Assembly: GCA_010093815.1 (NCBI GenBank)
Contig: ML996572.1
DNA from: Pseudovirgaria hyperparasitica
Taxonomy: Eukaryota
Strand: one strand, 5' to 3'
DNA length: 64,000 nt
The notes beneath the pieces were generated by a model. That model saw only the letters and a list, made by a program, of their open reading frames with translations, was not told the DNA's origin and made no database searches. This document shows, one piece after another, positions 6,201-59,234 of the stretch (positions are counted from its first letter, which is position 1; the number at the start of each line of letters is the position of its first letter). The position numbers and the translations under genes are program-made.

Positions 6201-9200
6201 TCTCGCGCTTCCGGCGTTAACTATATCTCGACCGACTTAGCTTTACGCTATACTCGCCTACCTATAGGGATTTTACCGCTATTCTCTATAAGTTTATTAA
6301 GCGGCGCCGTAATTCGTAAGAAGCCTATAATGAATTTACGATAATAGTTTACGAAACCTATAAATATTCTAATTTAACGTATAGTAGTAGGTTCTAGCCA
6401 TTCTATAATAGTCTTTATACGCTCCGGCTCCATTTTTAGGCCGCTATATATTATAATAAAGCCGAGAAACCTAACTTCTTATTAGTGAAACTCGCATTTA
6501 GATAATTTTACATAGAGTTTATACTACCTTAGATGATTTAGCACCGATTTCACGTGTTCTTTATAATTCTATATGCTATCGGAGTAAATTAGTATATTAT
6601 TAAGATAAACTACGTAAATCACGTTAAGTAATTCTACGAGTATAGTGTTAATATATCCTTAAAACGCTCCTAGCGCATTTATTAGCCCGAATAGCATAAT
6701 AGTATACTTAAAATAACTATATCTAGTCCGAAATACGGTTTTCTACTTATCTCCGTAATGAATTCGAAGCCGGGAATATATATCTCGTAAATCTAGCTTC
6801 GTAAAGTACTTTACCTTCGTTAATTAGTCTAAAGATTCACTAACTAGCGGTAATGGGTGACGATTCTTCTTAGTTACCGTATTTAGTACCTAATAGTCGA
6901 TGTATAGACGTAAACTTCCATCTTTCTTCTTTATAAAGAGAATAGATACGCTAGCCGATAACGTACTACGACGTATCCAGCCTCTTTCGAGATATTCTTT
7001 AATATATTTATAAAGAACTTCGAGTTCTAGTCTCGAAAGTAGGTAAAGTAGACTATAAGGGACGTCTACTCCCTCTTCGAGCTCGATCTTTAGCTTATAC
7101 GGCCTGTGATTAGGGAGAAGTAACGTATCTCCTACCGAAAATATATCCGTATACTATAAATATACGTCAGGTAGCGTGTCTTTACCCTAATTATTACTAT
7201 TATCTTTGTCTTTATCGACGATTAATAAGGATATAAGATAGATTAGCGACGATTAGGTCCGCACGGCGAGATTCCATGCCTCCTTACTAATAGTTACGAC
7301 TTACTAGTATAATTTACCACGGTATTATTGGAACGTTAATATCTCCTTCTAAAAATTAAGAATAGGGTTTAGACGTCTAAGCTAAGGCATCCCTAGAATC
7401 ATATTCTATTAGCTAATATTAGCCACGATAAATTCATTAGACATCTACTATTTTATTATCTTCGAGTTATGAACTTCGTAATTTATTATAGCTTTACCTA
7501 AAGTTCTAACTTTATATCTATTAACTACGATAGTTCGGCTAACTTTACTAAGATCGTACGATAATCTATACTCCTTTATAAGAATTAACGAAATATAGTT
7601 ATCTTCTATACTAGTATCTACGAGGGCCTATATAGTTTTATTACTATTTACTATAGGTAACGATACTTTTAGTAATATTAGGTCTTTACTCGCCGGAAGG
7701 CGCTACGGCTCCTTCTAAGTATATATAATTTAGCTAAGGACGCGGTTAGGTCTCGTATACTAGCCTATTCTTTTTTCGGATTCTTATAGTTAGGCGAAAT
7801 ATATTCTATTTCTCTATACTTATAGTAACGAAGTGCGCTATAATCCTACTATTTTATAATAGGTGTTATATTTAAGCCTATACCTTATTCTTTTCCGTGT
7901 TAAGAAGCACCGCCTCGATTATTTTAGTATCCTCTTAACGCATTTCTACCCCGATTTACGCTCTTCTAGTACTAATCGTAGTAAGGTTACTCTTAATCGA
8001 ACGTATTCGATCGACCTCGTTTCTAACCCGTATAGGGTTCGTTGGTTTTACCTAGAGAGCCGCGTTTCTTAAGGATACGGTAGTGTTTATTAGCTTTCTC
8101 CTCTAATTCGTATAGATAGTTAAAACTTAATAATACTATTCCTAGTCTTTTATGGATTGACGGAAGTAGTACTTCGCGAAACTAGAATATATGAATATTT
8201 TCCTATAGTATAGGGATATTATCCTATAGGTTTTAGAGGTATTATAGTAGTTAAGTAGGTGTCTAGTTCGGTCGTTATACCACACTTCTTAACTTAGATA
8301 GTACCTTTCTTTCACGTTCTCTATCCATTCCGAGGGTGTTTAGTATAAATATAGCTAAATATTCCTAGGTTATCGTAGATAGTAGCTATACTTCCTTCTA
8401 TCTATCCTATTAATCGCGGGATTATAAGCCTAGGTATCGTTCTCTAAACGAAATGTGTTATACTTTAGTAGAAAAGAGTAGAGGGTTATCGAGGAAGTAC
8501 TTTTCGTAGTCTCTCTTCTAGTCTTTCTACTCCTTTTAGTTCTTCCCTATAAATATAGTCGGGTCTTTAGGTTTCGGTATACCTAGGGAAGGAGTAGGGT
8601 AAATCGATAATAAAGCGGCTAGGTATACGGTAGATTGTCGTAACTCTAATAGTAGGTAAACTAATTCCGCCTAAATTAGTATAGGAAGTCGTCCACCTAC
8701 TATCGTTCGGCGTAGTTCTTTAAGAGACTCCTTAAGTTCTCGTCTCTTTATAAGGAGTTTCGCGCGTTCTACCTATTCTTTAAGAGTTTAAATCTCTCGA
8801 GCCTAATTCGCGACGTATTCCTAAAGTTTAGCGATAGTTTATTATAATACCTCGCGTGGCTCCGCCACGACTCGTTATCCGGCTTTATGTTATTAGAAGT
8901 TACTCGGCGTATCTACTATTTCTTCATCTAAAAGCTCCGTGATTCGGTCTAACATTTCTACTTCTCGGTTAGAAACGGCCGGGATTAATACCGATTATAG
9001 AGGATCCCTATTATTGAATATAGTATTACTTATCCCTATAGTAGATCGTGTCGACCTTCTCGGTTCTAGTTAGACTATCTTAACTATAGTACTATATAGG
9101 GAGTAATTCGAATATAAGAATAGAGTTATTAGATAGTAGTATAGTTAGATAGAATAATAGGGTGTATTCTATCATAGAACGAATTACTACCAAACCCTTT

Positions 9201-9340
9201 TAGTAGAAATCTAAGAGTATATATATAAAGGGACGCCGATCTATCTAGCACGTAACTATTTACCGCCCTTCACGTTACCTTCTAACCCTGTTAGCTAAGG
9301 TACGTATAGATCGGGTCCTATCTAAGGCTAAGTCCTAACA
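3253..9340 (-). mobile_element. RIP-degraded Ty3/Gypsy chromovirus 'A' (5' LTR, gag, PR, RT, RNase H, integrase, chromodomain); 3' end interrupted by element C
   Basis: Minus strand shows gag with zinc-knuckle remnant (~7780-7830), RT motifs LFIKKKDGSLRL (~6900-6945) and VYLNNI from YLDD (~6594-6610), RNase H PVAFFSRKM (~6015-6045), integrase (~4600-5400) and chromodomain (~4130-4290). 5' end TGTTAGG at 9340. Confidence 0.9.
9085..9340 (-). repeat. 5' LTR of element A
   Basis: Outer end TGTTAGGAC (minus) at 9340 coincides with the junction back into element B sequence. The inner boundary is an estimate from a RIP-ed CA just before the gag start. Confidence 0.55.
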
Positions 9341-9615
9341 TCGGTATACCATAGCTCGAAAAACATAACCCGAAACTAGACTTCATCTAGAAAACAGCTA
9401 GCTAGCACATATACCTACTATAATAGAACCTAGTATAGCTAGTCGACGACGAATAATTCTAGAAGGACTACGAAAAGGCAATCTCCGCTATCTATATCCT
9501 CTTACTTACTTAAAATAGAGAGCTTAGTATTAAAGTAGACGAAAACCTACTATATTAGTATAAAATATACTAATATATCGCGTTAGCGATCGATTCCTCT
9601 AAACTACCTTAATAC

Positions 9616-9755
9616 NNNNNNNNNNNNNNNNNNNNNNNNNNNNNNNNNNNNNNNNNNNNNNNNNNNNNNNNNNNNNNNNNNNNNNNNNNNNNNNNNNNNN
9701 NNNNNNNNNNNNNNNNNNNNNNNNNNNNNNNNNNNNNNNNNNNNNNNNNNNNNNN
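9616..9755. other. Assembly gap (140 N)
   Basis: Run of N inside B copy 1. Confidence 1.
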
Positions 9756-12700
9756 TAACCTCTATATAGACCTATCTACCCTCTTTTAGAACCTAAGTTA
9801 TAAGCCCTTCGAGAATATATCGAAAAGAACCTTATATAAGAATAGATTAGGCCTAGTATATCCCTAGCTAGAGCTCTAATTCTCTTTATAAAGAAGAAGG
9901 ATAGGAGTCTCCGTCTATATATTAACTACTATAGCCTAAATAATATTACGCGAAAGAATTATTACCTACTACCTCTTATCTCCGAGTCTATTAATAGACT
10001 AGGGCGCGTGAAGATCTTTACTAAGCTTAATCTACGCGACGCCTACTACCGCCTACGTATTAAGAAGGGCGATAAGTAGAAAACGGCGTTTAGGACCCGT
10101 TATAGATACTTTAAGTATATAGTAGTCCCTTTTAGACTAACTAACACGCTAGGAACCTTCTAAGTATATATTAATAACGCGCTAGTAGGTCTACTCGACA
10201 CGACGTGTATCGTATACCTTAATAATATCCTTATCTTCTCTAATAATAAAGAAGAATATATCTAGTATATACGCGTAGTCCTAGATAGGCTAGAAAAATA
10301 TAAGCTATATATTAAGCTATCTAAATACGAGTTCCACTAGGACCACGTTAACTTCCTTAGCTTCGTTATTACTAATTAAGGTATAACTATAGAAAGGGAT
10401 AGGGTCGCTACTATTATAGACTAGCCTAAACTAAAATCGGTTCGAGACATACGTGTCTTTATTAGATTTACTAATTACTACTAAAAATTCGTTAAGTATT
10501 TCTCCCGGCTAGTAGCACCGCTTAACACGTATATTACTACTATAGATTCGTCTATTACGGTCCGCGGTAGATAGAAATAGTATAATATTAAATTATAGCC
10601 TATAGAATTATTAGAAGGTAAAAGGGCCTCCTTCGAGAAAATCAAAGAGGCATTTATAACTACTCTATTACTAATATACTTTGACCTAACTAAACCTATC
10701 CGCGTTAAAACCGACGCGTTAGAATTTATAATCTTAGGCATTCTCTTCTAGCCTAGACTAACTAAGTCTAAAAAGGTCTAATAGTATCTAGTTACGTTCT
10801 TCTCACGTAAAATAGTCGATATTAAGACTAGATATACTATCTATAACTAAGAGCTACTAGTAATAGTAGAGTCGTTTAAATAGTAGCAATATTATCTTAA
10901 AGGTAACATGTATAATATTAAGTTACTAACTAATTACTATAACTTAAAGGGGTTTATAAGTATAACGGTTTTAAACTATTAATAGGTCTAATAGACTAAG
11001 TAGCTTACGAACTTTTACTTTATAATCTACTATTAACCTAGAAGTATAAACCTAGCTAATAGAATGTTAAGAAGACCTAACTATAAAGAAGGCGCCTAGG
11101 ATTATAGTAGCTATAGGGTCCTAGAGTAGCTATAGGCCTAACTCTTAAGGATAAGGTTAGATTTTAAGTTATTAGGCGATTAGCGAGATACTAACATTAA
11201 TACTAGTAATCGAATCTCTAAGACCGAAGCCGGTAACTAAAGACGCAGTACCGAAGTCTCTAGTAGGCCGTTTATTAGCGCTATTAGAAAGGGCGATAAT
11301 ACCTAGCGTAAATATCTAATTAACCTCGCCTAGTTAATTATAGATCTATAGAAGATAGACCCGATAGTTTTAAAGTTACGTAAAATATAGTAAGATAGGT
11401 TATTATAGACTAAAGTAGACTATAAGTAGACCTTCGTAGACGGCTTACTTTACTATAATAGAAAGTACTATATACTAATAGGTAACACGCGATTTGATAT
11501 AGTTAGCTAATACTATAACGCTAACCTAGTAGAATACTTTAGGTATATATATACCCTAAGCTTAATTCGTTAGTACTATTTTTAGGAAGATATGCCTAAG
11601 TACGTCGAAGAATAGATAGCTACTTATCTAATTTATTAAAGAACGAAGGCCCCTAGGCATAAGCTATATAGGAATTTATAGCCTCTTTCAGCCCCCCTCT
11701 TTATATAGAAAGATATTATTATAGACTTTATAGTTAAATTACCTCTAAGCGAGATACTTAGGATAAGTTATAATTCTATTCTTATTATTATAGATAGACT
11801 TATAAAGATATCTAGGTATATCCCGGTGTAGAAGACGATTATATCTAAAGAACTAGCGTAGGTATTCTAGAACAAGATTATTAAGGTCTATAGTATACTA
11901 AAAAGGATCGTTATAGACCGAGAAAGTACCTTCACGTCTAAATTCTAGACGTTATTCTATAAAATAGTAAGTATAAATAGAAATATATCTATAGTATTTT
12001 ATCCTTAGACGGATAGCTAGATAGAGCGATAGAACTAGACGCTTAAGGCCTACCTACGCGCATTCTATAATTTCGAGTAGGACGACTAGGCCTCCCTACT
12101 AAGTATAGTAGAGTTCATATATAATAATAGTCGTTATAGCACGATAGATATTATACCTTTCTAGGCGAACCTCGGACGTAGTCTAAGGATAGGTTTTAAG
12201 CCTTAGACGGTCTAATTTAATCGAATAATAGACGTGAACGTCCACGCTTAGAAATTAGCAATTAAAATCTTCGAAACCATACATAACTATCGCGCTATAA
12301 TCTAATAAGTAAACGACTCGTATATAAAGTACTATAATAGATTAGCTAAGGATTAGACGTATAAGGAGGGCGACGAGGTCCTTCTTAATATCTATAATAT
12401 ACGAACATCGCGAGTAAATAAGAAGCTTAATTATAAAATAGCTAGTCCCTTCCGAATTAAATATTATATTAGTATAAGAGTCTACGAGCTCGACTTAGAA
12501 AGCGATATAAGAATCTATAACGTGTTCCATATCTTACTACTCGAAAGATTTCGATCTAATATATATGGCCGCATGAACGTGTAGTTATACTCTATTATAC
12601 CCTAAGATGGACTAGACGTGTTCGAAGTAGACTATATTATTAAACATAGGATTAATAAAGACGGCGTTTAGAAATATAGAATCCATTAGAAGGACTATAC

Positions 12701-15249
12701 TAAGAATAAGGATACCTAGGAACCAGCGGTATATATCTTAAGTTCTATAATAGCTACGATAAGTAAAAGATATAGAATAGTATATTATTAATATAAGTAT
12801 AGCGACGTCGCGGTTATCGTAAAAAGAAGAAGGATACCATAGAGAATAAAGTGCTAAACTAGGAAATCCAGACACGTACTAGGAAAACTCTATATAGTAG
12901 CCCTATAATTTAAGCGTTATATGGTTACTAGACGCGAAGAAAGCGTAAATAACTATTTTAGAAACGCGACGCGATATACTATAATAGAATAATATAGAGA
13001 AGTCTAGAATAGACTAATATAGACCATTATATATAAGAAAAACATAGGACTAAGAACCTAAAAAAAGGTACCCTACTATAGAATTAAACTCTTAATACGA
13101 AATATAAAAGGTTAGAGTATCTAAACCGATAACTACTAGACTACTAGTTTAGATGCTCTAATAGAATTTATAGAGATAAACTAATTTATATACGGTGCCC
13201 ATACTTAGGTAACTTAAGGAAAATTAGAATATAGAAACTAATAGTTATAAGCTAAGCGAGCGCACATATAATATCGTTAAGTTAAGAATTAAATTACTAG
13301 AAACTAGCCGACGGGTATCTAAACGGTCTAAAAAGGACTAAAATAGATAAGAGCTAGATATAGAACTAATATATAGAGCTAGGCATAGAGCTAATATATA
13401 GAGCTAGACTATAGAGCTAATATAGAGAGCTAAACCTATAGAGCTAGAACTATAGAGCTACTCCTCTATCTTATTATCTGTTCTAACCTCTAGTATAGTC
13501 CTCTCTAACTATATAATATAGTAGTAGAGGATGACGACCTTAGCCTCTAGAGTAATAACCCGATCCGTTAGAGCCTAGAGGGAAGAGCCTTAAGCGCCGG
13601 AGCGTAGCGACTAGGTCTAAAGTTAGCTAATACGATCTAGAATAATCTAGAAGGGAATATATACCCTCTTACGAGGCGACTTAGAGGGAGAAATAGTAGA
13701 CCTCTTATAAGATCTATTAGTAGCGCGAGACGGATAGAGGGGGATAGAGCGAATCCTCTCTACGGCCTCTATAGCTAGGATAGACTCCCTAGAATAGGTA
13801 GTCTAGACGCTAGGGATCTCGCGGCGGCTAGAAAAATTAATAGATGTTAAAAATAATTAATATACTTATAACTTATACTTTAATAACCTCTAGGAAGAGC
13901 TTATAGCGCTCCCTAAACTCCCTCTATATAGTAGATAGACGGCTATAAGGACCCCTAAGGGTCTCGCGGACGCGAAGGTCGTTATATATATCTTATATAT
14001 ATATAGGAATCTAAGAATATATTAGCGCGGACTACTTTAGATTATACTAGATTAAGATAGCCTATTATACTTACCTATAGATAAGTCTTACTAGTTATAG
14101 TATAGCGGCGGTAGCGGGTAGATAGAGTAAAGATAGGGCGTATAGACCCGTTACGGTTAGTAGAGTAGTAGCTAATACTAGAGTTAGAGCGAAAGAGATA
14201 TTTAGAGCCGGCCGTATAGCTCTTAATATACTTATAGTATATCGAACCGTAGTTTGCCGTTTTTCTATAGCGTAAACCACGACTACGTTTAGTATCCTTA
14301 GCGACCTAGGCCTTATTATTAGTAGACTAGGGTTTAGAGTAAATATTAAGGTCCTAAAAGGACCTAGAGTAACTAAATTAGTCTATATTAGACCGGAAGG
14401 AAGAGTAGTAAGGCGGCGGCGTGGGTAAGCGCGAGGGCTCGCGATTATTATCTATAACGAGATCTTCTTTATCCTCTAGAGGAGGTAGAGTAGATAGTAT
14501 ACGCTTTAGAGTAAGAGGAGAATCTACGACCACTTTATCTATAAGTTTAGTACTAGAATTACCTAGATTAGAGTAACTAGTAGCTATATTAGTAGTAGAG
14601 GTAGTAGTAGTAGTAGCCCTAGCTACTCTCTTCTCCGACTTAGAGCGCGCCTTTATACTACCATAATAGGTAGGCTTCTTAGCCGGCGTGGCCGGGGAGA
14701 AGGTAATACCTTTAGAGCGAGTCTTACGAGAGGAGGAGGTAGGCTTAGAGATAGGACTAGTATTAGATATCTATATATATATATTAGCTAGAGATCTAAG
14801 GAAGGAATATTCGTCTACCCTTAACGGCGATTAACGAAGCTAAATTAGTAACTATAATAACGCGAATAGGTTATATTAGACCGGTTCTAATAAGAATAGA
14901 CTACTATAGACCCTTCTAAACCTAAACTAGGGAAGATAGTATATAAATTAACGACTTACCTTAAGAGCGAGGTGGATATACTAGAGAATAAAATTAAAGG
15001 CGAGCGAAGCTAAATATATACTTAACTAAAGTAGTAATTATATGTCCTAGATAGTAGCTACGAAGTAAGGGATAAGCGCGTATATAAACTAGTAAAAGTA
15101 AACTAGAATCTCGAGTTCACCTATATTAAGGATGGTTATAATATTATAGAAACTTAGTTACGGATATATAGGTATACGATAGATTATAGAGACTTAGGAT
15201 TATATATACTTAAGTACTTTAGGGCGAAGTATAAAAAGAAGAAGGATAT

Positions 15250-15487
15250 TATTAGGACGGGAACTATAATAGATCTATATAGACTATTCTAATCTATATA
15301 GCCACGTAGTAGCTAGAGCTAGGTTAAGTTAGCTAAGTTAAGCGAGGTTACTATATAAGTAGACCTCATAAACCGATTCCTACTTATTAGGAATCAACCT
15401 TGTATAAGAGTAAGATTACTCTATAAATACATTCCTATGTCTCTCTATGAACTATTAGACTACTATCCCACGTCTTTACTCTTTACA
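15250..15487 (+). repeat. 3' LTR of B copy 1 (238 bp)
   Basis: Follows the PPT, starts TATTAGG (RIP-ed TGTTAGG) and ends TTTACA. Matches the reverse complement of 17540-17777 and 25356-25593. Confidence 0.9.
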
Positions 15488-17539
15488 CTCGATAAGAACG
15501 GTGTCTAAAAGTATTAAATCCGTTGGAAGAACTATACTAAGAATAAGAACACCTAGGAACCTACGGTATATATCTTAAGCGCCGCGATAGCTATATATAA
15601 ATAGAGGTTATAGAATAATACGTTACTACTATAAACCTAGCACCGTCGGGGCCGTTATAAAAAGAAGAAGGATACCGTAGAGAATGAAGTATTGAATCAC
15701 GAATCCTAAACGCATACTAGGAAAACTCTATAAGGTAGCCCTATAATTTAAGTAATACACGGTTACTAAACACGAAGAAAACGTAAATAACCGTTATAGG
15801 CACGTAACGTAATATATTATAATAGAATAATATAGAGAAGTCTAGAATAGACTAATATAGACTATTATACACGAGAAGAATATAGGACTAAGAAACTAAA
15901 AAGGTACCCTACTACGGAATTAAACTCGTGATATATAATATAAAAGGTTAGAGTACCCGAACCAATAACCACTAGGCCACTAGTTTAGATACTCTAATAT
16001 AATTTAGAGAGATAAACTAATTTATATACGATACCTATACTTAAGTAACTTAAAGGAAATTAGAACCTAAAATTTAATAGTTATAGAATAAATAAGAACG
16101 TATATAATATTATTAAGTTAAGAATTAAATTACTAGAAAACTAGTAGATAGGTATCTAAATGGTCTAAAAAGGACTAAAACGGATAGAAACCAGGTAGAT
16201 AGAGCTAATACACACTATATAGAAACCCTAGCAAATAGAGCCATAGAGCTACTCCTCTATCTTATTATTACTCTTAGAGCGTAGCGAACGAACTAACTAA
16301 GTAATAGAGTAACGGAGGTTAGAGACCTTATCCTCTAGAGTAACCACGCGCTTAGTTAGAGCCTAGTAAGACGATAACTAAGCGCTAGAGCGGAGCGACT
16401 AGACCTAAAGTTAGCTAACGCGGTCTAGAATAATCTAGAATAGAATATATACCCTCTTATAAGGTAACTTAGAAGGAGAACTAGTAGACCTCTTACGAGA
16501 CCCGTTAGTAGTATAAGACGGGTAGAAAGGAATAGTACGAATCTCTTCTACGGCCTTAGTAGCTAAAACCGACTCCCTAGAATAGGTAGTCTAAGTACTA
16601 GGAATCTCGCAGCGACTAAAAATTATAAGCTAAGGTTAATAATAATTAACGGTTTCTAAACTTATACTTTAATAACCTCTAGGAAGAGCTTATAGCGCTC
16701 CCTAAACTCTCTATATATAGAAGCTAGATAATTACTAGAACTACCGAGAATCTCGCGGACGCGAAGATCGTTATATATATCTTATATATAAATAGAAACC
16801 TAAAAACGTATTAGTATAGATAACTTTAGATTACTCTAGACTAAAATAGTCTAATAGACTTACCTAAAGATAAACTTTACTAAGGACGGTATAGCGGTAG
16901 TAGCGGGTAGAGAGCTTAAAGATTAGGTATATAGGCCCGTCGCGGTTAGTAGAGTAGTAGCTAATACTAGAGTTAGAGCGGAAGAGATATTTAGAGCTAG
17001 TAGCGTGAGCCTTAATATACTTAAAGTATATTAAACTATAGTTTACCGTTTTCCTATAGCGTAAACCGCGACTACGTTTAGTATCTTCGGTAACCTAGGC
17101 CTTATTATTACTAGGGCTAGGTTTAGAGCGAATATTAAGGTTCTAAAAGAACCTAGAGTAACTAAGTCGGTCTATATTAGACTAAAAAGAGGAACGGCGT
17201 TTAGAGCGAGGCGGCGGAGGCGTAAACTCTCGATTATTATCTATAATAAGATCTTCTTTATCCTCTAAAGGAGGTAGAGTAGATAGATAGCGCGAGTAGA
17301 TATAGGTAGGCTTTATAGCTACCTCTTCCGTAATACTAGTACTAGGATTATCTAGATTAGAGCGACTAGTAGCTACGTTAGTAGTAATAGTAGTAGTAGT
17401 CTTAGCTACCTTCTTCTCTAACTTAGAGCGCGCCTTTATACTACTACGATAAGTGGATTTTTTAGCTAGTATAGCCGGGGTAGAGATAATCCCTTTAGAG
17501 CGAGTCTTACGAGAGAAGGAGGTAGACTTAGAAATAGAA

Positions 17540-17777
17540 TATAAAGAGTAAAGACGTAGGATAGTAGTCTAACAGTCTATAGAGAGACATAGGAATGTAT
17601 TTATAGAGTAATCTTACTCTTATACGAGGTTGATTTCTAACGAGTAGGAATCGGTTTATACGGTCTACTTATATAGTAACCTCGCTTAACTTAGCTAACT
17701 TAACCTAGCTCTAGCCACTACGTGGCTATATGGATTAGAATAGTCTATATAGATCTATTATAGTTCCCGTTCTAATA
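17540..17777 (-). repeat. 3' LTR of B copy 2
   Basis: 238-bp direct repeat of 25356-25593, with the PPT adjacent at ~17780-17794. Confidence 0.92.
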
Positions 17778-18256
17778 ATATCCTTCTTCTTTTTATACTT
17801 CGCCCCGAAGTACTTAAGTATATATAATTCTAAGTCTCTATAATCTATCGTATATCTATATATCCGTAACTAAGTTCCTATAACGTTATAACTATCCTTA
17901 ATATAGGTGAACTCGAGATTCTAGTTTACTTTTACTAGTTTATGTACACGCTTATCCCTTACTTTATAGCTACTACCTAGGATACGTAATCGCTACTTTA
18001 GTTAAGTATATATTTAGCTTCGCTTACCTTTGATTTTATTCTCTAGTATATCTACCTCGCTCTTAAGGTAAGTCGTTAATTTATATACTATCTTCCCTAG
18101 TTTAGGTTTAGAAGGGTCTATAGTAGTCTATTCTTATTAGAACCGGTCTAATATAACCTATTCGCGTTATTATAGTTACTAATTTAGCTTCGTTAATCGC
18201 CGTTAAGGGTAGACGAATATTCCTTCCTTAGATCTCTAGCTAATATATATATATAG

Positions 18257-19710
18257 ATATCTAATACTAGTCCTATCTCTAAGCCTACCTCCTTCTCTCG
18301 TAAGACTTACTCTAAAGGTATCGCCTTCTCCCCGGCTACGCCGGCTAAGAAGCCTATCTATTACGGTAGTACGAAGACGCGCTCTAAGTTAGAGAAGAGA
18401 GTAGCTAGGGCTACTACTACTACTACCTCTACTACTAATATAGCTACTAGTTACTCTAATCTAGATAATCCTAGTACTAAACTTATAGATAAAGTAGTCA
18501 TAGGTTCTCCTCTCGCTCTAAAGCGTATACTATCTACTCTACCTCCTCTAGAGGATAAAGAAGATCTTATTATAGATAATAATCGCGAGCCCTCGCGCTT
18601 ACCCACGCCGCCGTCTTACTACTCTTCCTTCCGGTCTAATATAGACTAATTTAGTCGCTCTAGGTCCTTTTAGGACCTTAATATTCGCTCTAAACCCTAG
18701 CCTACTAATAATAAGGCCTAGGTTACTAAGGATACTAAACGTGGTCACGGTTTACGCTATAGGAAAACGGCGAACTACGGTTTAATATACTATAAGTATA
18801 TTAAGGGCTATACGGCCGGCTCTAAATATCTCTTTCGCTCTAACTCTAGTATTAGCTACTACTCTACTAACCGTGATAGGCCTATACGCTCTATCTTTAC
18901 TCTATCTACCCGCTACCGCCGCTATACTATAACTAGTAAGACTTATCTATAGGTAAGTATAATAGGCTATCTTAATCTAGTATAATCTAAAGTAGTCCGC
19001 GCTAATATATTCTTAGATTTCTATATATATATAAGATATATATAACGATCTTCGTGTCCGTGAGACCCTCGGGGGTTCTTATAGCCGTCTACCTACTATA
19101 TAGAGGGAGTTTAGGGAGCGCTATAAGCTCTTCCTAGAGGTTATTAAAGTATAAGTTATAAGCACGTTAATTATTTTTAATACCTATTAATTTTTCTAGC
19201 CGCCGCGAGATCCCTAGCACCTAGGCTATCTATTCTAGGGAGTCTATCCTAGCTATAGAGGCCGTAGAGAGAATTTACTCTATCCCCCTCTATCCGTCTC
19301 GCGCTACTAACGGATCTTATAAGAGGTCTACTATTTCTCCCTCTAAGTCGCCTTATAAGAGGGTATATATTCCCTTCTAGATTATTCTAGATTATATTAG
19401 CTAACTTTAGATATAGTTACTACGCTCCGGCGCTTAAGGCTCTTCCCTCTAGGCTCTAACGGATCGGGTTATTACTCTAGAGGCTAAGGTCGTCGTCCTC
19501 CGCCGCTATATCATGCGGTTAGAGAGAACTATACTAGAGGTTAGGACGGATAATAAGATAGAGGAGTAGCTCTATAGTTCTAGCTCTATAGATTTAGCTC
19601 TCTATATTAGCTCTATAGTCTAGCTCTATATATTAGCTCTATACCTAGCTCTATATATTAGCTCTATACCTAGCTCTTATCCGTTTTAGTCCTTTTTAGA
19701 CCGTTTAGAT
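18257..19710 (+). pseudogene. RIP-inactivated spliced antisense accessory gene of element B (putative Zn-cluster-like protein); further copies on the minus strand at ~13320-14770 and in B'
   Basis: Introns GTAAGT..GCTAAT..TAG at 18068-18256 and 18953-19016, plus a probable one at 19149-19199. Exons are conserved and introns diverged between B and B'. Six conserved TAY codons at 18788-18946. The 3' end is approximate. Confidence 0.6.
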
Positions 19711-22700
19711 ACCCGTTAGCTAGTTTCTAGTAATTTAATTCTTAACTTAACGATATTATATATACGCTCGCTTAGCTTATAACTATTAGTTTCTATATTC
19801 TAATTTTCCTTAAGTTACCTAAGTATGGGCACCGTATATAAATTAGTTTATCTCTATAAATTCTATTAGAGCATCTAAACTAGTAGTCTAGTAGTTATCG
19901 GTTTAGATACTCTAACCTTTTATATTTCGTATTAAGAGTTTAATTCTATAGTAGGGTACCTTTTTTTAGGTTCTTAGTCCTATGTTTTTCTTATATATAA
20001 TGGTCTATATTAGTCTATTCTAGACTTCTCTATATTATTCTATTATAGTATATCGCGTCGCGTTTCTAAAATAGTTATTTACGCTTTCTTCGTGTCTAGT
20101 AACCATATAACGCTTAAATTATAGGGCTACTATATAGAGTTTTCCTAGTACGTGTCTGGATTTCCTAGTTTAGCACTTTATTCTCTATGGTATCCTTCTT
20201 CTTTTTACGATAACCGCGACGTCGCTATACTTATATTAATAATATACTATTCTATATCTTTTACTTATACGTAGCTATTATAGAACTTAAGATATATACC
20301 GCTGGTTCCTAGGTATCCTCGTCCTTAGTATAGTCCTTCTAACGGATTCTATATTTCTAAACGCCGTCTTTATTAATCCTATATTTAATAATATGGTCTA
20401 CTTTAAACACGTCTAGTCTATCTTAGGGTATAATAGAGTATAACTACACGTTCATGCGGCCATATATATTAGATCGAAATCTTTCGAGTAGTAAGATATG
20501 GAACACGTTATAGATTCTTATATCGCTTTCTAAGTCGAGCTCGTAGACTCTTATACTAATATAATATTTAATTCGGAAGGGACTAGCTATTTTATAATTA
20601 AGCTTCTTATTTACTCGCGATGTTCGTATATTATAGATATTAAGAAGGACCTCGTCGCCCTCCTTATACGTCTAATCCTTAGCTAATCTATTATAGTACT
20701 TTATATACGAGTCGTTTACTTATTAGATTATAGCGCGATAGTTACGTACGGTTTCGAAGATTTTAATTACTAATTTCTAAGCGTGGACGTTCACGTCTAT
20801 TATTCGATTAAATTAGACCGTCTAAGGCTTAAAACCTATCCTTAGACTACGTCCGAGGTTCGCCTAGAAAGGTATAATACCTATTATACTATAACGACTA
20901 TTATTATATACGAACTCTACTATACTTAGTAGGGAGGCCTAGTTATCCTACTCGAAATTATAGAATACGCGTAGGTAGGCCTCGAGCGTCTAGTTCTATC
21001 GCTCTATCTAGCTATCTATCTAAGGATAAAATACTATAGATATATTTCTATTTATACTTACTATTTTATAGAATAATATCTAGAATTTAGACGTGAAGGT
21101 ACTTCCTCGGTCTATAACGATCCTTTTTAGTATACTATGGACCTTAATAATCTCGTTCTAGAATACCTACGCTAGTTCTTTAGATATAATTATCTTCTAT
21201 ACCGGGATATACCTAGATATCTTTATAAGTCTATCTATAATAATAAGAATAGAATTATAACTTATTCTAAGTATCTCGCTTAGAGGTAAGTTAACTATAA
21301 AGTCTATAGTAACGTCTTCCTATATAAAGAGGGGGGCTAAAAGAGGCTATAAATTCCTATATAGCTTATGCCTAGGGGCCTTTATTCTTTGATAAATCGG
21401 ATAAGTAGCTATCTATTCTTTAACGTACTTAGGTATATCTTCCTAAAAATAGTACTAATAAATTAAGCTTAGGGTACGTATATACCTAAAGTATTCTACT
21501 AGGTTAGCGTTATAGTATCGGCTAACTATATTAAATCGCGCGTTACCCGTTAGTATATAGTACTTTCTATTATAGTAAAGTAAGCCGTCTATAAAGGTCT
21601 ACTTATAGTCTACTTTAGTCCGTAATAACCTATCTTACTATATTTTATATAACTTTAAAACTATTAGGTCTATCTTCTATAGATCTATAATTAACTAGGC
21701 GAGGTTAATTAGATATTTACGCTAGGTATTATCGCCCTTTCCGATAGCGCTAATAAACGGCCTACTAGGGACTTTAGTACCGCGTCTTTAGTTACCGGCT
21801 TCGGTCTTAGAGATTCGATTACCGGTATTAACGTTAGTATCTCGCTAATCGCCTAATAACTTAAAATCTAACCTTATCCTTAAGAGTTAGGCCTATAGCT
21901 ACTCTAGGACCCTATAGCTACTATAATCCTAGGCGCCTTCTTTATAGTTAGGTCTTCTTAACATTCTATTAGCTAGGTTTATACTTCTAGGTTAATAGTA
22001 GATTATAAAGTAAAAGTTCGTAAGCTACTTAGTCTATTAGACCTATTAATAGTTTAAAACCGTTATACTTATAAACCCCTTTAAGTTATAGTAATTAGTT
22101 AGTAACTTAATATTATACATAGTACCTTTAAGATAATATCGCTACTATTTAAACGACTCTACTATTACTAGTAGCTCTTAGTTATAGATAGTATATCTAG
22201 TCTTAATATCGACTATTTTACGTGAGAAGAACGTAACTAGATACTATTAGACCTTTTTAGACTTAGTTAGTCTAGGCTAGAAGAGAATACCTAAGATTAT
22301 AAATTCTAACGCGTCGGTTTCGACGCGGATAGGTTTAGTTAGGTTAAAGTATATTAGTAATAGGGTAGTTATAAATGCCTCTTTGATTTTCTCGAAGGAG
22401 GCCCTTTCGCCTTCCGATAATTCTATAGACTATAATTTAATATTACGCTATTTCTATCTACCACGGACCATAATAGACGAATCTATAGTAGTAGTACGCG
22501 TGTTAAGCGGTGCTACTAGCTAGGAGAAATACTTAATAAATTTTTAGTAGTAATTAGCGAATCCGATAAAGATATATATATCTCGAACCGATTTTAGTTT
22601 AGACTAGTCTATAATAGTAGCGACTCTATCCCTTTCTATAGTTATACCTTAATTAGTAATAATAAAGCTAAGGAAGTTAACGTGGTCCTAGTGGAACTCG

Positions 22701-25355
22701 TATTTAGATAGCTTAATATATAGCTTATATTTTTCTAGCCTATCTAGGACTATATATATATACTAGATATATTCTTCTTTGTTATTAGAGAAGATAAGAA
22801 TATTATTAAGGTATATAATACACGTCGTGTCGAGTAGACCTACTAGCGCGTTATTAATATACGCTTAGAAAGTTCCTAGCGCGTTAGTTAGTCTAAAAGG
22901 GACTACTATATACTTAAAGTATCTATAACGGGTCCGAAACGCCGTTTTCTACTTATCGCCCTTCTTAATATATAGACGGTAGTAGGCGTCGTGTAGATCG
23001 AGCTTAGTAAAGATCTTTACGCGCTCTAGTCTATTAATAGACTCGGAGATAAGAGATAGTAGGTAACGATTCTTTCGTGTAATATTATTTAGGCTATAGT
23101 AGTTAATATATAGATAGAGACTCCTATCCTTCTTCTTTATAAAGAGGATTAGAGCTCCGGCTAGAGATATACTAGGCCTAATCCATCCTCACGTAAGGTT
23201 CTTTTCGATATATTCTCGGAGGATCTATAGCTCGGGTTCTAATAGAGGGTATATAGGTCCGTATAGGGGTTATTAACTATCTTTAAGATTAATAGTAAGG
23301 TCGGTAGATTAGTATTAAGGTAATTTAGACGAGTCGATTGCTAACACGATATATTAGTATATTTTATACTAATATAGTAGGTTTTCGTCTACTTTAATAC
23401 TAAGCTCTCTATTTTAAGTAAGTAAGAGGATATAGATAGTAGAGATTACCTTTTCGTAGTCCTTCTAGAATTATTCGTCGTTAACTAGCTATACTAGGTT
23501 CTATTATAGTAGGTATATACGCTAGCCAGCTATTTTCTAGATAAAGTCTAGTTTCGGGTTATATTTTTCGAGCTATAGTATACCGAGGATCATGTCGAAG
23601 GGACTATCTACTATGATAAAGGTTAAGTAGTAGGGTTTCCACTTCCCCCCGCTGTCCTAGATACTATATTTAATAGTATAGGTACCCTATAATTTAATAG
23701 GACTATCAATACTATAGAAGGTAGTATCTATTAGTACTTAAATATTAATATTAAGTTCTCGTGCTTATTAAGTCGATATAACGTTAGTAGCTAAACCGCT
23801 ATTAAGTATTACGGTCTAATATTATCCACGAGGGACCTCGATAGGCCTAGCCTATAGTTTAATATACTAGTTAGCTAGTTATCCCTCTATTTTAGTTACG
23901 CCTATAAGTCGTAAGGGTTCCTTATAGATAGTTAGTTTTTTATATTATATACCGGGTAGTTAGGCGCGATATATCCTAGCTACTAGTACTTATAGTATAT
24001 AACTAACTTAGTATCTATATTAGTATTTGGTAGTTTCCCTAAGCGGTACTCGGGTGCTATATAGTCTATCCTACTATAGGTATAGTAGATGACTTTAGGT
24101 CGTTTATACGAGTCGTTTCTCGCGTCTTAATATATTAACTAGTAGAAAGATCCGTAGTACGGGCCTCGTCTTCTCGAGTTCGTAGAGTAGTAGTACCTAT
24201 AAGGTATTCCGCGCGATCTATTACTAAACCGGTCCTCTTTAGACGATTTCGTATTAGATTAGATTAATAGAGATAGTCGTGCGCCTATACGATATTAGTT
24301 ATTTATTATACGCTAGTATCGTTCTATAAGATTCGCGAGTACCTAAAGATTAGTAGAGATAGACGTTATAAGGTCGATACGTTCCTTTACGCTCGGGTTA
24401 AGGGACCTTTTAAAGTCGTCGTATTATTAAACTATATAATCTTCCTTAGCTTCTCTCTAAAGAGGTTAGAGGTATTTAAGGAGTTATAACGGGGATTATC
24501 TCTCTTACTATTAAGTCTTAAAGATATAGCTCTAAGTCTATTCGCGTCGCTCGGCTCTATCGCCGAAGTATTAAAGAAGGAATTCAGTGAACGTGTCCTA
24601 GTTATACGCATTCTTAGGGTATTTAATTCGATATACCATCTAACGTTTAGATAGCGTTAGGTCTAGGTAGTTCTATATAAACCTAATCTTATTACTATCG
24701 TTTATAAATAGGTAGAAGAATCGGCTATACTAGTAAGCCTATTTATAAAAGCTTCTCCTGGTTTTACCGTCGAAGTAAGGTAGTTTCTTAGGCTAAGGTA
24801 ACTAGAATAGTAATAGACTTAGTTAGACTATTTTAGCTTAAGTTAGTCTATATTAGTATAGGTTAGTTACTACTAGTACTAAAGCGCGTAGTACGGCTTC
24901 GAGTCTAGCGGTTCGTTCTTATGCTTTATCGAGTTTATAAAGTTACTACTTAAGCTAAGTCTAACGCTACCTCTCCGCGTGTAGCTTAGTATATATATCG
25001 TTATAAGGCGTAGTTAATATTAGTTAGTTCTAACGAATTAATTCATTAACGTTAATAGGGTCTAGTCTTATAGTAAGGATAGGTCTAGTATAGTATAAAC
25101 TAGACCGCGATAGAGTATAATAGACTCCTTCCTTATTATTTAGGTAATCTTCTACGGTTATACGGAATACCGTACTAGTTATTAGTATGATAGCCTATAG
25201 AGTATGCTTATTAGTAGAGGTAGTCGTAGGGAGACTATTCTCTTCGTTTAGATTTAGAGAGAGTCTCTTATATAAGGTAGTACCACGGGTATTATAGCGC
25301 GTAGTAGGAGCTATCTCTATAAGCTACCGTCGTGCTATATAGAGAGGAATTAAAA

Positions 25356-25593
25356 TATAAAGAGTAAAGACGTGGGATAGTAGTCTAATAGTTTATAGAG
25401 AGACATAGGAATATATTTATAGAGTAATCTTACTCTTATACGAGGTTGATTTCTAACGAGTAGGAATCGGTTTATATGGTCTACTTATATAGTAACCTCG
25501 CTTAACTTAGCTAACTTAACCTAGCTCTGGCCACTACGTGGCTACATGGATTAGAATAGTCTATATAGGTCTATTATGGTTCCCGTCCTAACA
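25356..25593 (-). repeat. 5' LTR of B copy 2
   Basis: Intact TGTTAGGACGGG start on the minus strand at 25593, flanked by TSD TAGAA. Confidence 0.92.
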
Positions 25594-26099
25594 TAGAACT
25601 AGTATTAGATATCTATATATATATATTAGCTAGAGATCTAAGAGTAGAATACTTATTTAGCCGTAAAGGCGATTAAAGAAGCTAAATTAGTAACCATAAT
25701 AACGCGAATAGATTATATAGGACTAGCTCTAATAAAAATAGACTACTCTAGACCCGAACGGATCTAAACTAAAGAAGATAGTATATAAATTAATAACTTA
25801 CCTTAAGAGTAAGGTAGATATACTAGAGAAGAAAATTTAGAATAAGAGAACTAAATATAAGCTTAGTTAATATAGCGGTTATATAACCCGTAGAGCTACC
25901 TCTAAGGTAGTAGCTATAAAGTAAGGGATAAGCATGTATATAAATAAAAGTGAACTAGAGCTTAAGTTTACTAATATAAAGACTATCGATAACGTTATAT
26001 GGATTTAATTAGATACGTATATAAATATAACGCTTATAGAATTACGGATTTATATATAGCTAAGTACTTCGGGGCGAAGTATAAAAAGAAGAAGGATAT

Positions 26100-26339
26100 T
26101 ATTAGGGCTAATACTAGGATAGACTTAACTAGACTACTATAGTCTAGTACGGTCCGTAATAGGTGGACCTAGGTTAAGCCAGCTAGAATAAGCGAGACTA
26201 CTATATAAGTAGGCCGCATATACTTAATTCCTACTCTTTAGGAATTAACCTTATTAGAAGAGTAGACTACCCTTTTAAATATATTCCCGAATCCTCCTAT
26301 AACCTGTTAGACTACTATCCTACGTCTATAATCCTTATA
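26100..26339 (+). repeat. 3' LTR of B'
   Basis: Follows the same PPT (AAAAAGAAGAAGGATAT) and is homologous to but diverged from the B LTR. Confidence 0.8.
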
Positions 26340-28087
26340 AGAGTTTTTAAAAGTTCTTAGAAGTTAAGTTAGAAAAGAGCCTATATAAAAACTATATTAG
26401 ATTCTAGAATTACTACCTTCTTTCTCTTCTCTAAGAAATTTAACTCTTTATTTATAGACTAAATTAGAGAGTTTAGAGCTTAGAAAGTATATGGAATATA
26501 ATAGAAGGCCGTATCTACGTCTCTATATAGACGTATCTCTAGTATAGTAGTAAGTATATATTTACTACTAGTATACTTAAGAGAGACCTTCTCTCATTTA
26601 CTCTAGACGGTATTCTCTCTCTATTACTAATATCTATATTTTTAGCTTTTCTATAAGGTCTTTAAGTATACTAGTTTAATAGACTACTAGTAAGTTTCTA
26701 AACTCTAAAGTCTAATTAGATTCTACTATAGTACTAGCTTAGGTATAGGATCTAGATCTAGAGATATATAATAGTAGAATATTAATTCTTTGAATACTTC
26801 TATTGGCTTCTAATAAGAGAGTAGAAAGAGTAATAATATGTTTAAAGAATAATAGAGAAAGAGAGTAAGAGTTAAAGAGATTCCTATGTAGTAGTAAGTA
26901 TATAGTCTATATAGAGTGGTACTTCTCTTTGAATTTAGACTATCTATAGAAACTCATCTATTACTCTATATAACTTATTATATAAGTATTACTTAAAACT
27001 TATCTTCTTGTTCTATTTATTATTAAGATTTTGATCAAGGGTAAGGTTGTCTTAGCTATTAGAATAAAGGGGAAATGCACGCGAGTATAAGTGCTAAACA
27101 CTTACGTCTTGTTACTGCGTTAGTCGGTCCGTTATCCAGTAGCTGCCAATGAGAATCCCACATCGTTAGGTGGTGTGCGCATATCGTCTTGCACCATATC
27201 TAAAATGCCTCAAGATCGTCCTGAAGCATAAGGTAATTGTCTCATTGATCCCTATAGCATTTAAAAAGATAGCTTATTGACGGTACTAGGTATAACATGG
27301 AACATTCGGCCGGTCGGCCTCGTCTCGGGATGACGGTAACTAAGGTTACATGCGTTCAAGGCTATCCATGCAGCTATCTCCCAGATGGTTATTTCATGCT
27401 TAGCCGGACGTCTCCGAGGCTCATGCCTCCTTAAACGTGTTGCTCGTACCGAGAATGAACTCATCATTGTATTCCGCTACGTTGTCGGCAAGGATAACAC
27501 ACTAGTGTCGACCTTTCAACTAGCTAACCGCCTTGCAGGATTTATAATACACACAGATATCAGAGTCACAGTTGTCCTGTAGTATTCATGGAAGTAGTCA
27601 CTAGCGTAGCAAGATCCTGGCCTTTTTGTCGATGTATATCATATATGATCTTCTAACTAAAGCAAGATCTAAGCCTGAATAGGTGGTGGAAGATGGCCTG
27701 ACCGGATAAAGTCTTTGATCCTACTAGTAACTGTTTCCTGTAAGTAGATCAGGGCCCCATGTCACGCTAATAGCTATTACTCTGAAAACCATAGCACATT
27801 GACGTACAGCCTGTTGTGTTACAGTGAAACAGTCATGGGCCTTGAGTAGTTGTTCTAGTGCCTGCTGCTTCACAATCTCTGTTCTAGCTTTTTGTTCACA
27901 ACATCAGCAACTTACGCTGTGAAGCAACTTGCCTATAAGCAAACCTATCTCAAAGACGCAAGGAGCTACGTTCGTACACACTGTCATCATTATATCCCCG
28001 TTATTATGCTGAACTGTTCAGTATATCTTGTTCGTAGTCGCGTGGAATATACTTGACATTCTCCCCACAAAAACAAATTTCGCAAAA

Positions 28088-31000
28088 ATGTCTACAGAAC
28101 AAGAAAATGTGCCGATCGCCATTATTGGGAGCGCTTGTCGCTTTGCTGGAGGCGTTACTTGCCCGTCTCAGCTTTGGAACCTCTTGAAAGAGCCTCGAGA
28201 TGTTTTAGGCTCTATACCGGAGAATCGCTTTCACGCAGAAGGGTTCTATCATCCTGACGCGTCATATCACGGACACACGAACGTTCTCTCGTCTTACACA
28301 CTTGACGGGGATCCTGGATCGTTCGACACAACATTTTTTAAGATCAAGCCTGTGGAGGCAAAGGCTATTGATCCTCAACAGCGTGTTCTGCTCGAGGTTG
28401 TCTATGAAGGCCTCGAAAATGCAGGTCTTTCCATACACAATGTGCGAGGTAGTGATACAGCTGTATACGTCGGCATTATGAGTAGCGACTACGAGAATAT
28501 GCTAGTCCAGGATGTTGATGTACTTCCTACCTACCATTCGACAGGCACTTCACGAGCCATAGCAGCGAACAGAATTTCGTACTTTTTCGACTTAAAGGGA
28601 CCTTCACTCACCTTGGACACTGCGTGTAGCTCTAGCCTTTATGCGATTCATTTAGCCGTCCAAGCAATCCGTAATGGGGATGCTGAAATGGCTATTGCTT
28701 GCGGGTCCAATCTAATTCTGGGACCAAACTTTTACATCTTTCAGAACAAATTAAACATGCTTTCGCCTGACTCAAGATGCAGGATGTGGGATGAAGGAGC
28801 CAATGGATATGCCCGCGGTGAAGGAGTTGCGGCAGTTGTTTTGAAATCGCTGCCAGCAGCATTGCGAGACGGTGATCATATTGAAGCTATCATTCGCGAG
28901 ACAGGGCTCAACCAAGACGGAGCAACGAATGGTATTACCATGCCCAGTACATCAGCTCAGACAGATCTGATCCGCAATACCTACTTAAAGGCGGGTCTGG
29001 ATCCTTTGACAGACGGTCCACAGTACTTCGAAGCCCACGGAACGGGAACTCAGGCTGGGGATCCTATTGAGGCCGAAGCCATACAGCGGTCCTTGATTCG
29101 CAACTGTGATATCCCGTACCCACGACAACGCAACAGTTCTGATCCTCTCTATATAGGCTCTGTCAAAACAGTGCTCGGACATACCGAGAGCGTTGCAGGG
29201 ATAGCAGGTCTCCTAAAGGCATCTCTAGCCATTCAACACGGCCTTATCCCACCGAATCTTCTCTTCGACCGGTTGAATCCCAAAGTGGCGCCATTTTATA
29301 AAGACGTTTGTGTTCCTATTAGGGCTCTACGTTGGCCTGCGATACCAGATGGCCAACCAAGACGAGCAAGCATTAATAGTTTCGGATTTGGTGGAGCTAA
29401 TGCCCATATTATCTTGGAAAGCTCCCCGAATCAAGATTTGATGAAAGACGATGGCGAAAATGAGACTTATGGACCATACGTCTTCTCCGCGCATTCAGAG
29501 CAAGGTCTAGTAAAGATGCTTAAGAACTACATCACATTTCTAGGGAGTGAGCTCTCGGAGTCCGTATCTGCTCGTGACCTGGCTTGGACACTTCGTTCAC
29601 GACGGTCGTTGCTGCCTTTCAAGGCCTCGTTTCCTACAGGAAATCTGGAAAAACTAAAGAGAGACATCGAGACTCGATTACAGGAGAATGCAGAAAAAGC
29701 GACTCCGCTGGGTACACTGTCCTTGGTTTCAAGAAGACGGGTTCTAGGCATCTTTACTGGTCAGGGCGCGCAGTATATTCGTATGGGATCGCAGCTTTTT
29801 GAAAGGTCGTCACTTGCTCGTGATACTCTCCAGAGACTGGAAGTTTCTCTTGCGAGGCTTCCCGTCGAGGATCGGCCGACATGGTCTCTAACTAAGGAAC
29901 TAAATGCTGATGAAGGTTCACGGGTGTACGAAGGCGCGATATCGCAACCACTCTGCACAGCGGTACAAATAGTTTTGGTTAATTTACTAAGACAGTCGGG
30001 AGTTGAGTTCGACGGGGTCATTGGTCACTCGTCGGGCGAGATTGCTGCTGCATATGCTGGAGGATACATCTGCGCAGAAGATGCCATTCGCATTGCGTAT
30101 TACCGTGGAATCCACATAAAAGCAGCGTGTAGCCCTAATTCAAATAAGATGAGAGGGATGATGCTAGCTGTTGGAACTTCAAGAGATGATGCAGAGGAGT
30201 TATTGCAAGAGCCTGTGTTTCATGGTCGAGTGGCAATAGCAGCAAGCAATTCCTCATCTAGCGTCACACTTTCTGGCGACGAGGACGCCATCGCAGAGCT
30301 TGAGACGATATTCGAAGACGAAAAGAAATTCAATAGACGATTGAGAACGGACATTGCTTATCACTCTGCACATATGATGCCATGCGCCCAACCGTACATT
30401 CGCTCGCTCGAGAAATGTAACGTACGGATCTTACGTTCGCACTCGAAAAGCTGTAGTTGGTATTCCACTGTATGCAACCTCACGATCACGAAGGGAGATC
30501 CTATGCTTGATACTGTAGCATGCTCATATTGGTCCGATAATTTAACACAACCTGTTCTCTTTTACGAAGCTATGCAGAGAGCACTAAATACAGGAAACTT
30601 TGACCTCGTAGTTGAGGTCGGGCCACATCCAGCCTTACGTGGACCAGCACTGGAAACCATTACGCAAACTTTGGAAAAACCGTTGCCGTACATTGGAACG
30701 CTGAAGCGAGGATCGGATCCAATCGAAGCATTCTCAGATACACTTGCATTCTTGTGGTCGCATCAAGAGACAGAATGTACGATCGACTTAGACAAGTACG
30801 AGGAGACTATGCAGGAGAGTACGGCAAAGTATCGGCTGGTCAAGAACTTGCCGACTTATCCCTGGGATCACAATCGAAGACACTGGCATGAGACACGCCA
30901 GACACGAAGGACTCGGCATCGAGAAGATCATGTCCATGAATTATTGGGCCATATCTGCCCAACCGTCACATCAAATCAAGTCAGTTGGAGACACTTCCTC

Positions 31001-59100: not shown

Positions 59101-59234
59101 AAGAAACTCTAGATGAGCATCCCTGCTTAGGCATCCTCATAACACTGTTGATAACCAGCGAGCAAACCGTCGCTTACAGAACTGCCTGCATCGCAAGTAA
59201 TTATAAAGCAGCAAAATACACCGAAGAAATCGTC

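Follow-up and report, generated by a model that had tools for sequence, protein, structure and literature searches.

Among long terminal repeat (LTR) retrotransposons, antisense accessory genes have been described in a few plant lineages and in the fungal element Boty, and for none of them has a function been established. In Boty-like elements, which are chromodomain Ty3/gypsy retrotransposons of Botrytis cinerea and Sclerotinia, the gene brtn occupies the interval from pol to the 3' LTR in antisense orientation (Zhao et al. 2011, Virology 417:248, as described in the passages of PMC8365987, PMC7264820, PMC4227169, and PMC5987419 that cite it); the citing passage of one of these papers also records BRTN-like transcripts in Monilinia. 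Plants have antisense open reading frames (aORFs) in the same interval, namely gene23 of maize Grande and the aORFs of rice RIRE2 and of Silene Retand, the last with a TRP28 domain. According to passages of PMC7264820 and PMC11963269, these frames occur in most copies of their elements, are predicted to bind nucleic acid or DNA, often lie near tandem-repeat arrays, and have been proposed to play a regulatory role. No further fungal antisense case besides Boty appeared in the literature searched, and one survey (PMC3248453) contains no occurrence of the word "antisense."

Here, we analyze a 64,000-nucleotide stretch of contig ML996572.1 from Pseudovirgaria hyperparasitica (assembly GCA_010093815.1), referred to as the window. 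It contains a chromovirus, element B, that has been degraded by repeat-induced point mutation (RIP) and carries a long extra segment, the cassette, between pol and the 3' LTR. We consider it probable that this cassette is an accessory gene of the aORF type, antisense to pol and inactivated by RIP, whose product would have been basic and Cys/His-rich and may have acted in trans as a nucleic-acid-binding factor. An earlier note on this DNA had not recognized such a gene as a described feature of fungal chromoviruses; that view does not hold, as brtn is cited at exactly this position (PMC8365987, PMC7264820, PMC4227169).

Element B carries a long open frame opposite to pol

Positions 3000-27000 of the window form an AT-rich block with a GC fraction of ~0.33, versus ~0.48 in the remainder. 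Element B lies in this block and is a Ty3/gypsy chromovirus by its reverse transcriptase, RNase H, chromodomain, LTRs, polypurine tract (PPT), and target-site duplication. Its RIP indices are extreme (TpA/ApT, 1.80; (CpA+TpG)/(ApC+GpT), 0.12). Pfam recovers RVT_1 (1.1e-15), RT_RNaseH_2 (1.4e-14), and SH3_Tf2-1 (4.3e-9) from B; the Chromo match (6e-4) is below the Pfam cut-off and ends at 20264, and the integrase core and gag are not detected by Pfam. The parts of the element and of its cassette are as follows.

17540..25593, minus strand: element B, RIP-degraded Ty3/gypsy chromovirus, 8054 bp (self-blast, LTR alignment, Pfam, RIP indices)
17535..17539 and 25594-25598, no strand: target-site duplication TAGAA, perfect, 5 bp (read off the sequence with aligned LTR ends)
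17540..17777, minus strand: 3' LTR of B, 238 nt, TGTTAGG...TTTATA (self-blast, LTR alignment)
17779..17795, minus strand: PPT of B adjoining the 3' LTR (sequence reading and exact 16-mer search)
18257..18952, plus strand: aORF exon 1, ATA plus 231 codons, with four internal TAA/TAG and a TAG at the exon end
19567..19677, no strand: tandem repeat array of period 13/25, shorter in copy C (see below)
20191..20207, minus strand: second, pol-proximal PPT copy, identical to the LTR-side PPT and directly after pol
20264..23902, minus strand: pol of B, protease to chromodomain, with 90 stops in 1213 codons
24001..25050, minus strand: gag of B, with a RIP-mutated CCHC knuckle, YYTYSRIDYIAPEY; no Pfam match
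25356..25593, minus strand: 5' LTR of B, 238 nt (self-blast, LTR alignment)

The earlier note had placed ~2.4 kb of extra sequence between the chromodomain and the PPT, and its figure is accurate: the cassette comprises 17796-20190 (2395 nt) and is bounded by the two PPT copies. Opposite to gag-pol, an aORF occupies 18257-19380, between the pol end and the PPT/3' LTR, and no comparable frame exists on the pol strand of the cassette. Over the 232 codons from 18257, the plus-strand frame is interrupted by only 5 stops, each of them TAA or TAG, and it contains open runs of 130 and 76 codons. We compared it with 2000 dinucleotide-preserving shuffles, scoring the best of six frames in each. The shuffles averaged 16.2 stops with a minimum of 9, and none reached the 5 of element B; the corresponding frame of an older copy, C, has 4 stops, a count also reached by 0 of 2000 shuffles. 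Stop density in the aORF is 2.2% per codon, versus 7.4% in the pol frame of B. TAA and TAG are RIP products of CAA, CAG, and TGG and account for all stops in the aORF, and its first codon, ATA, which RIP would make from ATG, directly follows a TAG. We conclude that the open frame existed before RIP.

The shuffles thus uphold the description of this frame as coding-like, and its composition is indeed basic and Ser/Thr-rich, as had been noted (K+R, 17.7%; S+T, 23.5%). The broader proposal in the earlier note is likewise supported, namely that the family has an accessory gene in this interval, antisense to pol, whose intron-like sequences would be able to survive retrotransposition.

The cassette is present in separate integrations

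Self-blast of the window identified three cassette-bearing copies: B, copy 1, and the older copy C. Where two copies (B and B', the latter being copy C) had been counted before, self-blast and alignment give three.

12767..15250, minus strand: copy 1 cassette (element at 9341-15487 with pol on the plus strand; aORF exon 1 at 14075-14770, minus strand)
15488..17534, minus strand: left part of copy C, with the pol end and the cassette up to aORF codon 7 (aORF exon 1 at 16864-17534)
25599..26339, minus strand: right part of copy C, with the first aORF codons (to 25612), the upstream region, the PPT (26082-26097), and the 3' LTR (26100-26339)

Element B is inserted, in opposite orientation and with its perfect TAGAA duplication, within the aORF of copy C, a member of the same family. 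B and C are therefore separate integrations, and the cassette moved with the element. The two are ~77% identical, with ~5% transversions. Copy 1 is far closer to B: no transversion separates the two in the PPT-to-exon 2 interval, one does so in 19200-19560, and all remaining differences across the cassette are transitions. It has also preserved the un-mutated LTR end ...TTTACA where B has ...TTTATA, and it abuts C at another site than B does. Given the transition-only differences and the different abutment on C, copy 1 is either a sister insertion or a rearranged duplicate that was RIPed against B. The consensus used here draws on these three copies, and within the cassette B and copy 1 are set apart by transitions only. 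All three are now dead.

Two features of this region concern its assembly and layout. B and copy 1 lie in opposite orientation ~2 kb apart inside C and form a 5.7-kb inverted repeat with 95% identity (window 9341-26339). Copy 1 is cut off at 9341 and contains an assembly gap (N run 9616-9755).

A Tyr-dense block marks the C-terminal part of exon 1

Exon 1 ends in a block unusually rich in TAY codons, for which the known zinc modules of element B provide a control.

18776..18946, plus strand: Tyr-dense block, 11 TAY in 58 codons (174-231), with 7 TAY in the first 173 codons
18788-18829, plus strand: block core, Y-Y-K-Y-I-K-G-Y-T-A-G-S-K-Y, read as C-[Y/F]-K-C-x3-H-x5-C

RIP prefers the change of TGY to TAY. 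In B, the gag knuckle now reads YYTYSRIDYIAPEY, the CCHC residues of gag and the HHCC residues of integrase are all Tyr, and 1233 codons of pol retain 1 Cys, 8 His, 2 Trp, and 1 Gln. Among 58-codon windows, those with the most Tyr in gag (14) and in pol (12) coincide exactly with these zinc modules. Because of this, the aORF block with its 11 Tyr is most simply read as a former Cys/His module; such an origin is likely for this C-terminal block, in which Cys residues would have bound metal.

Copy C has TAY at 9 of the 11 codons; the other two are codon 185, with CAC (His), and codon 179, with TTT (Phe). With RIP changes around codon 185 removed, B and C give K-[G/A]-H-A-A-G and truly differ at just two places; the B/C alignment at the block is therefore sound. 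The earlier note had singled out six TAY codons (178, 181, 201, 220, 223, and 230) and stressed their retention in copy C. All six exist and are TAY in all three copies; they are, however, a selection from 11, and their retention is uninformative, since RIP ends at TAY and B and C share 44 of the 59 block residues in any case. It had also proposed looking for Tyr or His in place of Cys at these codons in less-mutated copies: copy C has His at one block codon, 185, which is outside the chosen six. Among contigs from the source sequencing runs, no variant falls in the Tyr codons of the block among the 40 of 319 variable places listed, a share too small to tell if TGY or CAY survives in any of the copies.

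Two strict intron-like signals recur in the three copies

The frame closes at the end of exon 1 and can be continued through two further putative exons.

18068..18256, plus strand: putative intron 1 (an intron of the 5' untranslated region if real), 189 nt in 3/3 copies, GTAAGT..GCTAAT..TAG
18953..19016, plus strand: putative intron 2, 64 nt in 3/3 copies, GTAAGT..[GA]CTAAT..TTAG, starting directly where the frame closes
19017..19148, plus strand: putative exon 2, 44 codons, with two RIP-type stops in B
19149..19224, plus strand: putative intron 3 with its acceptor redrawn, 76 nt (B, copy 1) or 77 nt (C), GTATAAGT..CTAG
19225..19380, plus strand: putative exon 3, weakly supported, 51 open codons followed by a TAG common to 3/3 copies

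The introns previously proposed at 18068-18256 and 18953-19016 keep their signals and lengths in the three copies and are retained here, but the third, drawn at 19149-19199, had to be redrawn: behind an acceptor at 19199, the frame meets 10 stops within 121 codons, while an acceptor at 19224 gives 51 open codons. The resulting three-exon model has 328 codons, with seven internal RIP-type stops in B and five in C. Comparison of B with C over 18257-19380 shows a single indel in the exons, of 6 nt, and a single 1-nt indel, in intron 3, which is also the sole indel there whose length is not a multiple of 3. A strict search for GTAAGT..RCTAAY..YAG on both strands of the 24-kb RIP block returned eight matches, six of which are introns 1 and 2 of the three copies. 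Being antisense to the genomic RNA, introns of this kind could persist through retrotransposition.

An alternative structure is a short, unspliced gene that ends at the TAG at 18950-18952 (231 codons), with the downstream intron-like motifs arising by chance in AT-rich RIP sequence. The strong stop statistics cover exon 1 only, exon 2 contains its two stops in 44 codons, and the 51 open codons of exon 3 are not unusual in cassette DNA; moreover, the "introns" are as conserved as the exons, and the remaining two strict matches lie elsewhere in the RIP block. We nevertheless consider this structure unlikely. A perfect GTAAGT stands right where the frame closes, and the GCTAAT or ACTAAT, the AG, and the 64-nt length of intron 2 are kept in all three copies. 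In exon 2, positions 19094-19153 show 95% B/C identity and are among the best conserved stretches, and only ~0.1 strict matches are expected per 1.6 kb of one strand (from the two background matches in the block).

The cassette is bordered by duplicated PPTs and belongs to the family

The exact 16-mer TAAAAAGAAGAAGGAT flanks the cassette twice per copy, with six exact matches in the window and none in 100 shuffles. The cassette is present in 3/3 window copies, separate integrations included, and also in the source sequence data: in contigs of two source sequencing runs, all 30 bins from the LTR through integrase are covered (13582 and 4926 records), and contig variants per listed site are similar in number in the cassette and in integrase. 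The coverage of all bins and the similar number of variants indicate that the cassette belongs to the family as a whole. Two further runs with the same species label (X3 and X4) gave 1 and 0 matching contigs, which is not evidence of absence.

A second gypsy family in the same block, element A (~3000-9300, minus strand), is ~66% identical to B in pol. In A, a purine-rich tract directly follows the chromodomain, and as at most ~1 kb is left up to the edge of the AT block, there is no room for a 2.4-kb cassette. Self-blast of the window found no LTR pair for element A.

The cassette might instead be a passenger that does nothing for the element, having been transduced from a host gene or nested there as a foreign fragment. 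Identical 16/17-nt PPTs flank it in all copies, as recombination at the PPT would be expected to leave them; family A sits in the same block without room for a cassette; and transduction is discussed as an origin of plant cassettes in a passage of PMC11963269. Even so, we find a passenger origin improbable, given that the frame is open save for RIP-type stops in copies with ~5% transversions, that cassette and integrase have about the same abundance in the source runs, and that neither the window nor the protein searches contained a host paralog. An accessory gene that belongs to the element remains our preferred interpretation of the cassette.

Three further observations concern the cassette and its PPTs. 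One contig of run X1 joins 17777 to 19955, skipping 2177 nt of the cassette, with a shorter side of 29 letters at a likeness threshold of 80; the contig could stem from a rare deletion derivative that lacks the accessory gene, or the join may be false and due to a T-rich stretch. The segment from the tandem array to the pol-proximal PPT (19701-20190) has the fewest B/C transversions (3.3%), with 95% identity at 19994-20053, and has no open frame on either strand; this conserved noncoding stretch may be a cis-acting sequence. Finally, a third PPT-like 16-mer with one mismatch lies in the reverse transcriptase coding region (23126-23141, minus strand, in B; 9887-9902, plus strand, in copy 1) at an FIKKKD motif and may be a central PPT or merely coding sequence.

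Substitution patterns give no clear coding signal, and homology searches are blank

Several results weigh against a spliced, coding gene. B/C transversions in exon 1 number 10, 11, and 19 by codon position and give no clear coding signal. Of the B/C differences, a share of 0.24 is synonymous in the proposed frame; the other frames range from 0.15 to 0.24 and "intron 1" reaches 0.38, in a dN/dS-like comparison that is limited by RIP noise. Exons are not better conserved than introns (B/C identity: exon 1, 0.778; intron 1, 0.831; intron 2, 0.750; intron 3, 0.667). The cassette contains ten open stretches of at least 45 codons, and exons 2 and 3 either contain stops or have a length at which an open frame could arise by chance. 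No RNA run was among the sequencing runs listed as containing the stretch, and splicing of the putative transcript is predicted from sequence signals. In the Tyr-dense block, none of the three copies has TGY at a Tyr codon. The CCHC zinc knuckle signature is C-x2-C-x4-H-x4-C; the block core has spacings of x2, x3, and x5, with His seen at the third ligand, and is knuckle-like only.

Homology searches were blank as well. Pfam matched the aORF exons to no family at E values up to 10, and a word-based homolog search with the three-copy alignment gave 0 of 8000 candidates at an E value of 0.01 or better. A HMMER profile of the C-terminal 144 columns found no credible homolog among 1.84 billion representatives. 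Metagenome scans produced 0 matches with a RIP-tolerant Y/R pattern and, by protein alignment, 587 pattern matches of which 0 were confirmed by tblastn, and the ESM Atlas returned no usable match to the copy C block. These blanks are weak evidence and do not show that the protein is new, because RIP hides even the gag and integrase core of B from Pfam. Selection on the aORF, similarly, is not measurable from three RIP-mutated copies. The sole HMMER match (E value, 3e-4), to a repetitive 548-amino-acid translation, was judged spurious. Within the window, comparison of the aORF with gag of B or A and with other sequence gave nothing below an E value of 0.08.

These results could be taken to mean that there is no gene at all, that the frame is open by chance or composition, and that any antisense transcript is noncoding. 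The substitutions between B and C and the blank searches fit this explanation, as does the low complexity of the N-terminal part of the aORF, with its CTA/ACT repeats. It leaves unexplained, however, why the low stop count was matched by no shuffle in either B or C and why stop density is below that of the pol frame of the same element, and we regard it as very unlikely.

The fungal Zn2Cys6 signature is C-x2-C-x6-C-x5-12-C-x2-C-x6-8-C. The hidden Zn2Cys6-like motif of the earlier note, which would make the product a trans-activator with all Cys codons RIPed to Tyr, is not supported and is very unlikely. In its favor, RIP prefers the TGY-to-TAY change, the known Cys codons of B are all Tyr, and codons 220, 223, and 230 fit C-x2-C-x6-C. 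Against it, the six codons are spaced x2, x19, x18, x2, and x6, and two of these five intervals miss the signature, one being x19 instead of x6 and the other x18 instead of x5-12. The selection also passes over five TAY codons, two of which are His and Phe in copy C, and Pfam finds no match (weak evidence under RIP). We also tried every other choice among the 11 TAY codons, and none fits the signature.

A model for the cassette gene

Before RIP, the cassette would have held a gene opposite to gag-pol, with a promoter of its own located in the 3' LTR or beside it and a transcript that was spliced. Its introns would have been kept through copying, being antisense in the genomic RNA. The product is predicted to have been a basic, Ser/Thr-rich protein of ~230 to 330 residues, with a C-terminal part rich in Cys and His that is now read as Tyr; the core of this part would have resembled a retroviral zinc knuckle (C-[Y/F]-K-C-x3-H-x5-C). 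By analogy with what has been proposed for plant aORFs, its most likely role would be that of a nucleic-acid-binding factor acting in trans on the transcription or RNA of the element. The Grande gene, to go by the title of a 2013 paper by Gomez-Orte et al., reportedly has its own promoter and a nuclear product. We put forward only tentatively, as a less likely and more specific scenario, that the family acquired its own spliced antisense gene between duplicated PPTs, encoding a nucleocapsid-like zinc-knuckle protein unrelated to brtn that acted in trans on RNA or chromatin and aided the very high copy number of the family.

If a second case in fungi is accepted, it would mean that chromoviruses have come by such cassettes more than once. 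The features of this one include a family that is very abundant in the source genome, intron-like signals, a likely Cys/His module, and duplicated PPT borders, and it would provide a tractable candidate, its protein being small and probably able to bind nucleic acid. The lesson for annotation is that a Tyr-dense block in RIP-mutated DNA indicates a former Cys/His module, from which a specific zinc-finger class should not be read without less-mutated copies.

Genes next to the RIP block

A single frame of 4151 codons begins ~1 kb from the edge of the RIP block (28028-40483, plus strand) and encodes a hybrid polyketide synthase/nonribosomal peptide synthetase (KS-AT-DH-MT-KR-ACP-C-A-T-reductase). 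For one neighboring gene, the closest Atlas clusters come from Ascomycota, which serves as a lead only. The GC-rich part of the window also contains the following ordinary fungal genes.

43159-44835, minus strand: beta-lactamase family gene
50615-52117, plus strand: Gfd2/DEDDh exonuclease-like gene
55590-56426, minus strand: cellobiose-dehydrogenase cytochrome domain gene
59073-60359, plus strand: PX domain gene

Comparison with known zinc modules and antisense accessory genes

With the fungal Zn2Cys6 cluster, the Tyr-dense block shares only its last three Tyr (codons 220, 223, and 230), which fit C-x2-C-x6-C; the first half and the linker do not fit, and a His lies inside the block. The CCHC knuckle is the closer likeness. 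Canonical spacing is x4/x4 where the aORF core has x3/x5, the Cys residues of the core are presumed ones, and the aORF has no similarity to gag of B; yet the core has the same 14-residue span, an aromatic residue at position 2, a Gly before the His, and basic surroundings, and the gag knuckle of B, YYTYSRIDYIAPEY, looks alike after RIP.

The plant aORFs of Grande, RIRE2, and Retand differ from the cassette gene in kingdom and lineage; Retand is described as a nonchromovirus, and the aORF here has no match to TRP28 or any other Pfam family. Introns are not mentioned in the passages of PMC7264820 and PMC11963269 that describe these genes, whereas the cassette has intron-like signals. In other respects, those passages describe much the same arrangement, with a long region between pol and the 3' LTR, an antisense open reading frame, and, in Retand, tandem repeats in the same region.

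No sequence similarity of the aORF to brtn of Boty emerged from the word-based search or from the profile search of 1.84 billion representatives, both limited by RIP and made without a direct comparison with BRTN. Set against Boty-like elements, the host here has strong RIP and AT-rich blocks. As brtn is described in the passages that cite it, its position and orientation are the same as those of the cassette gene.

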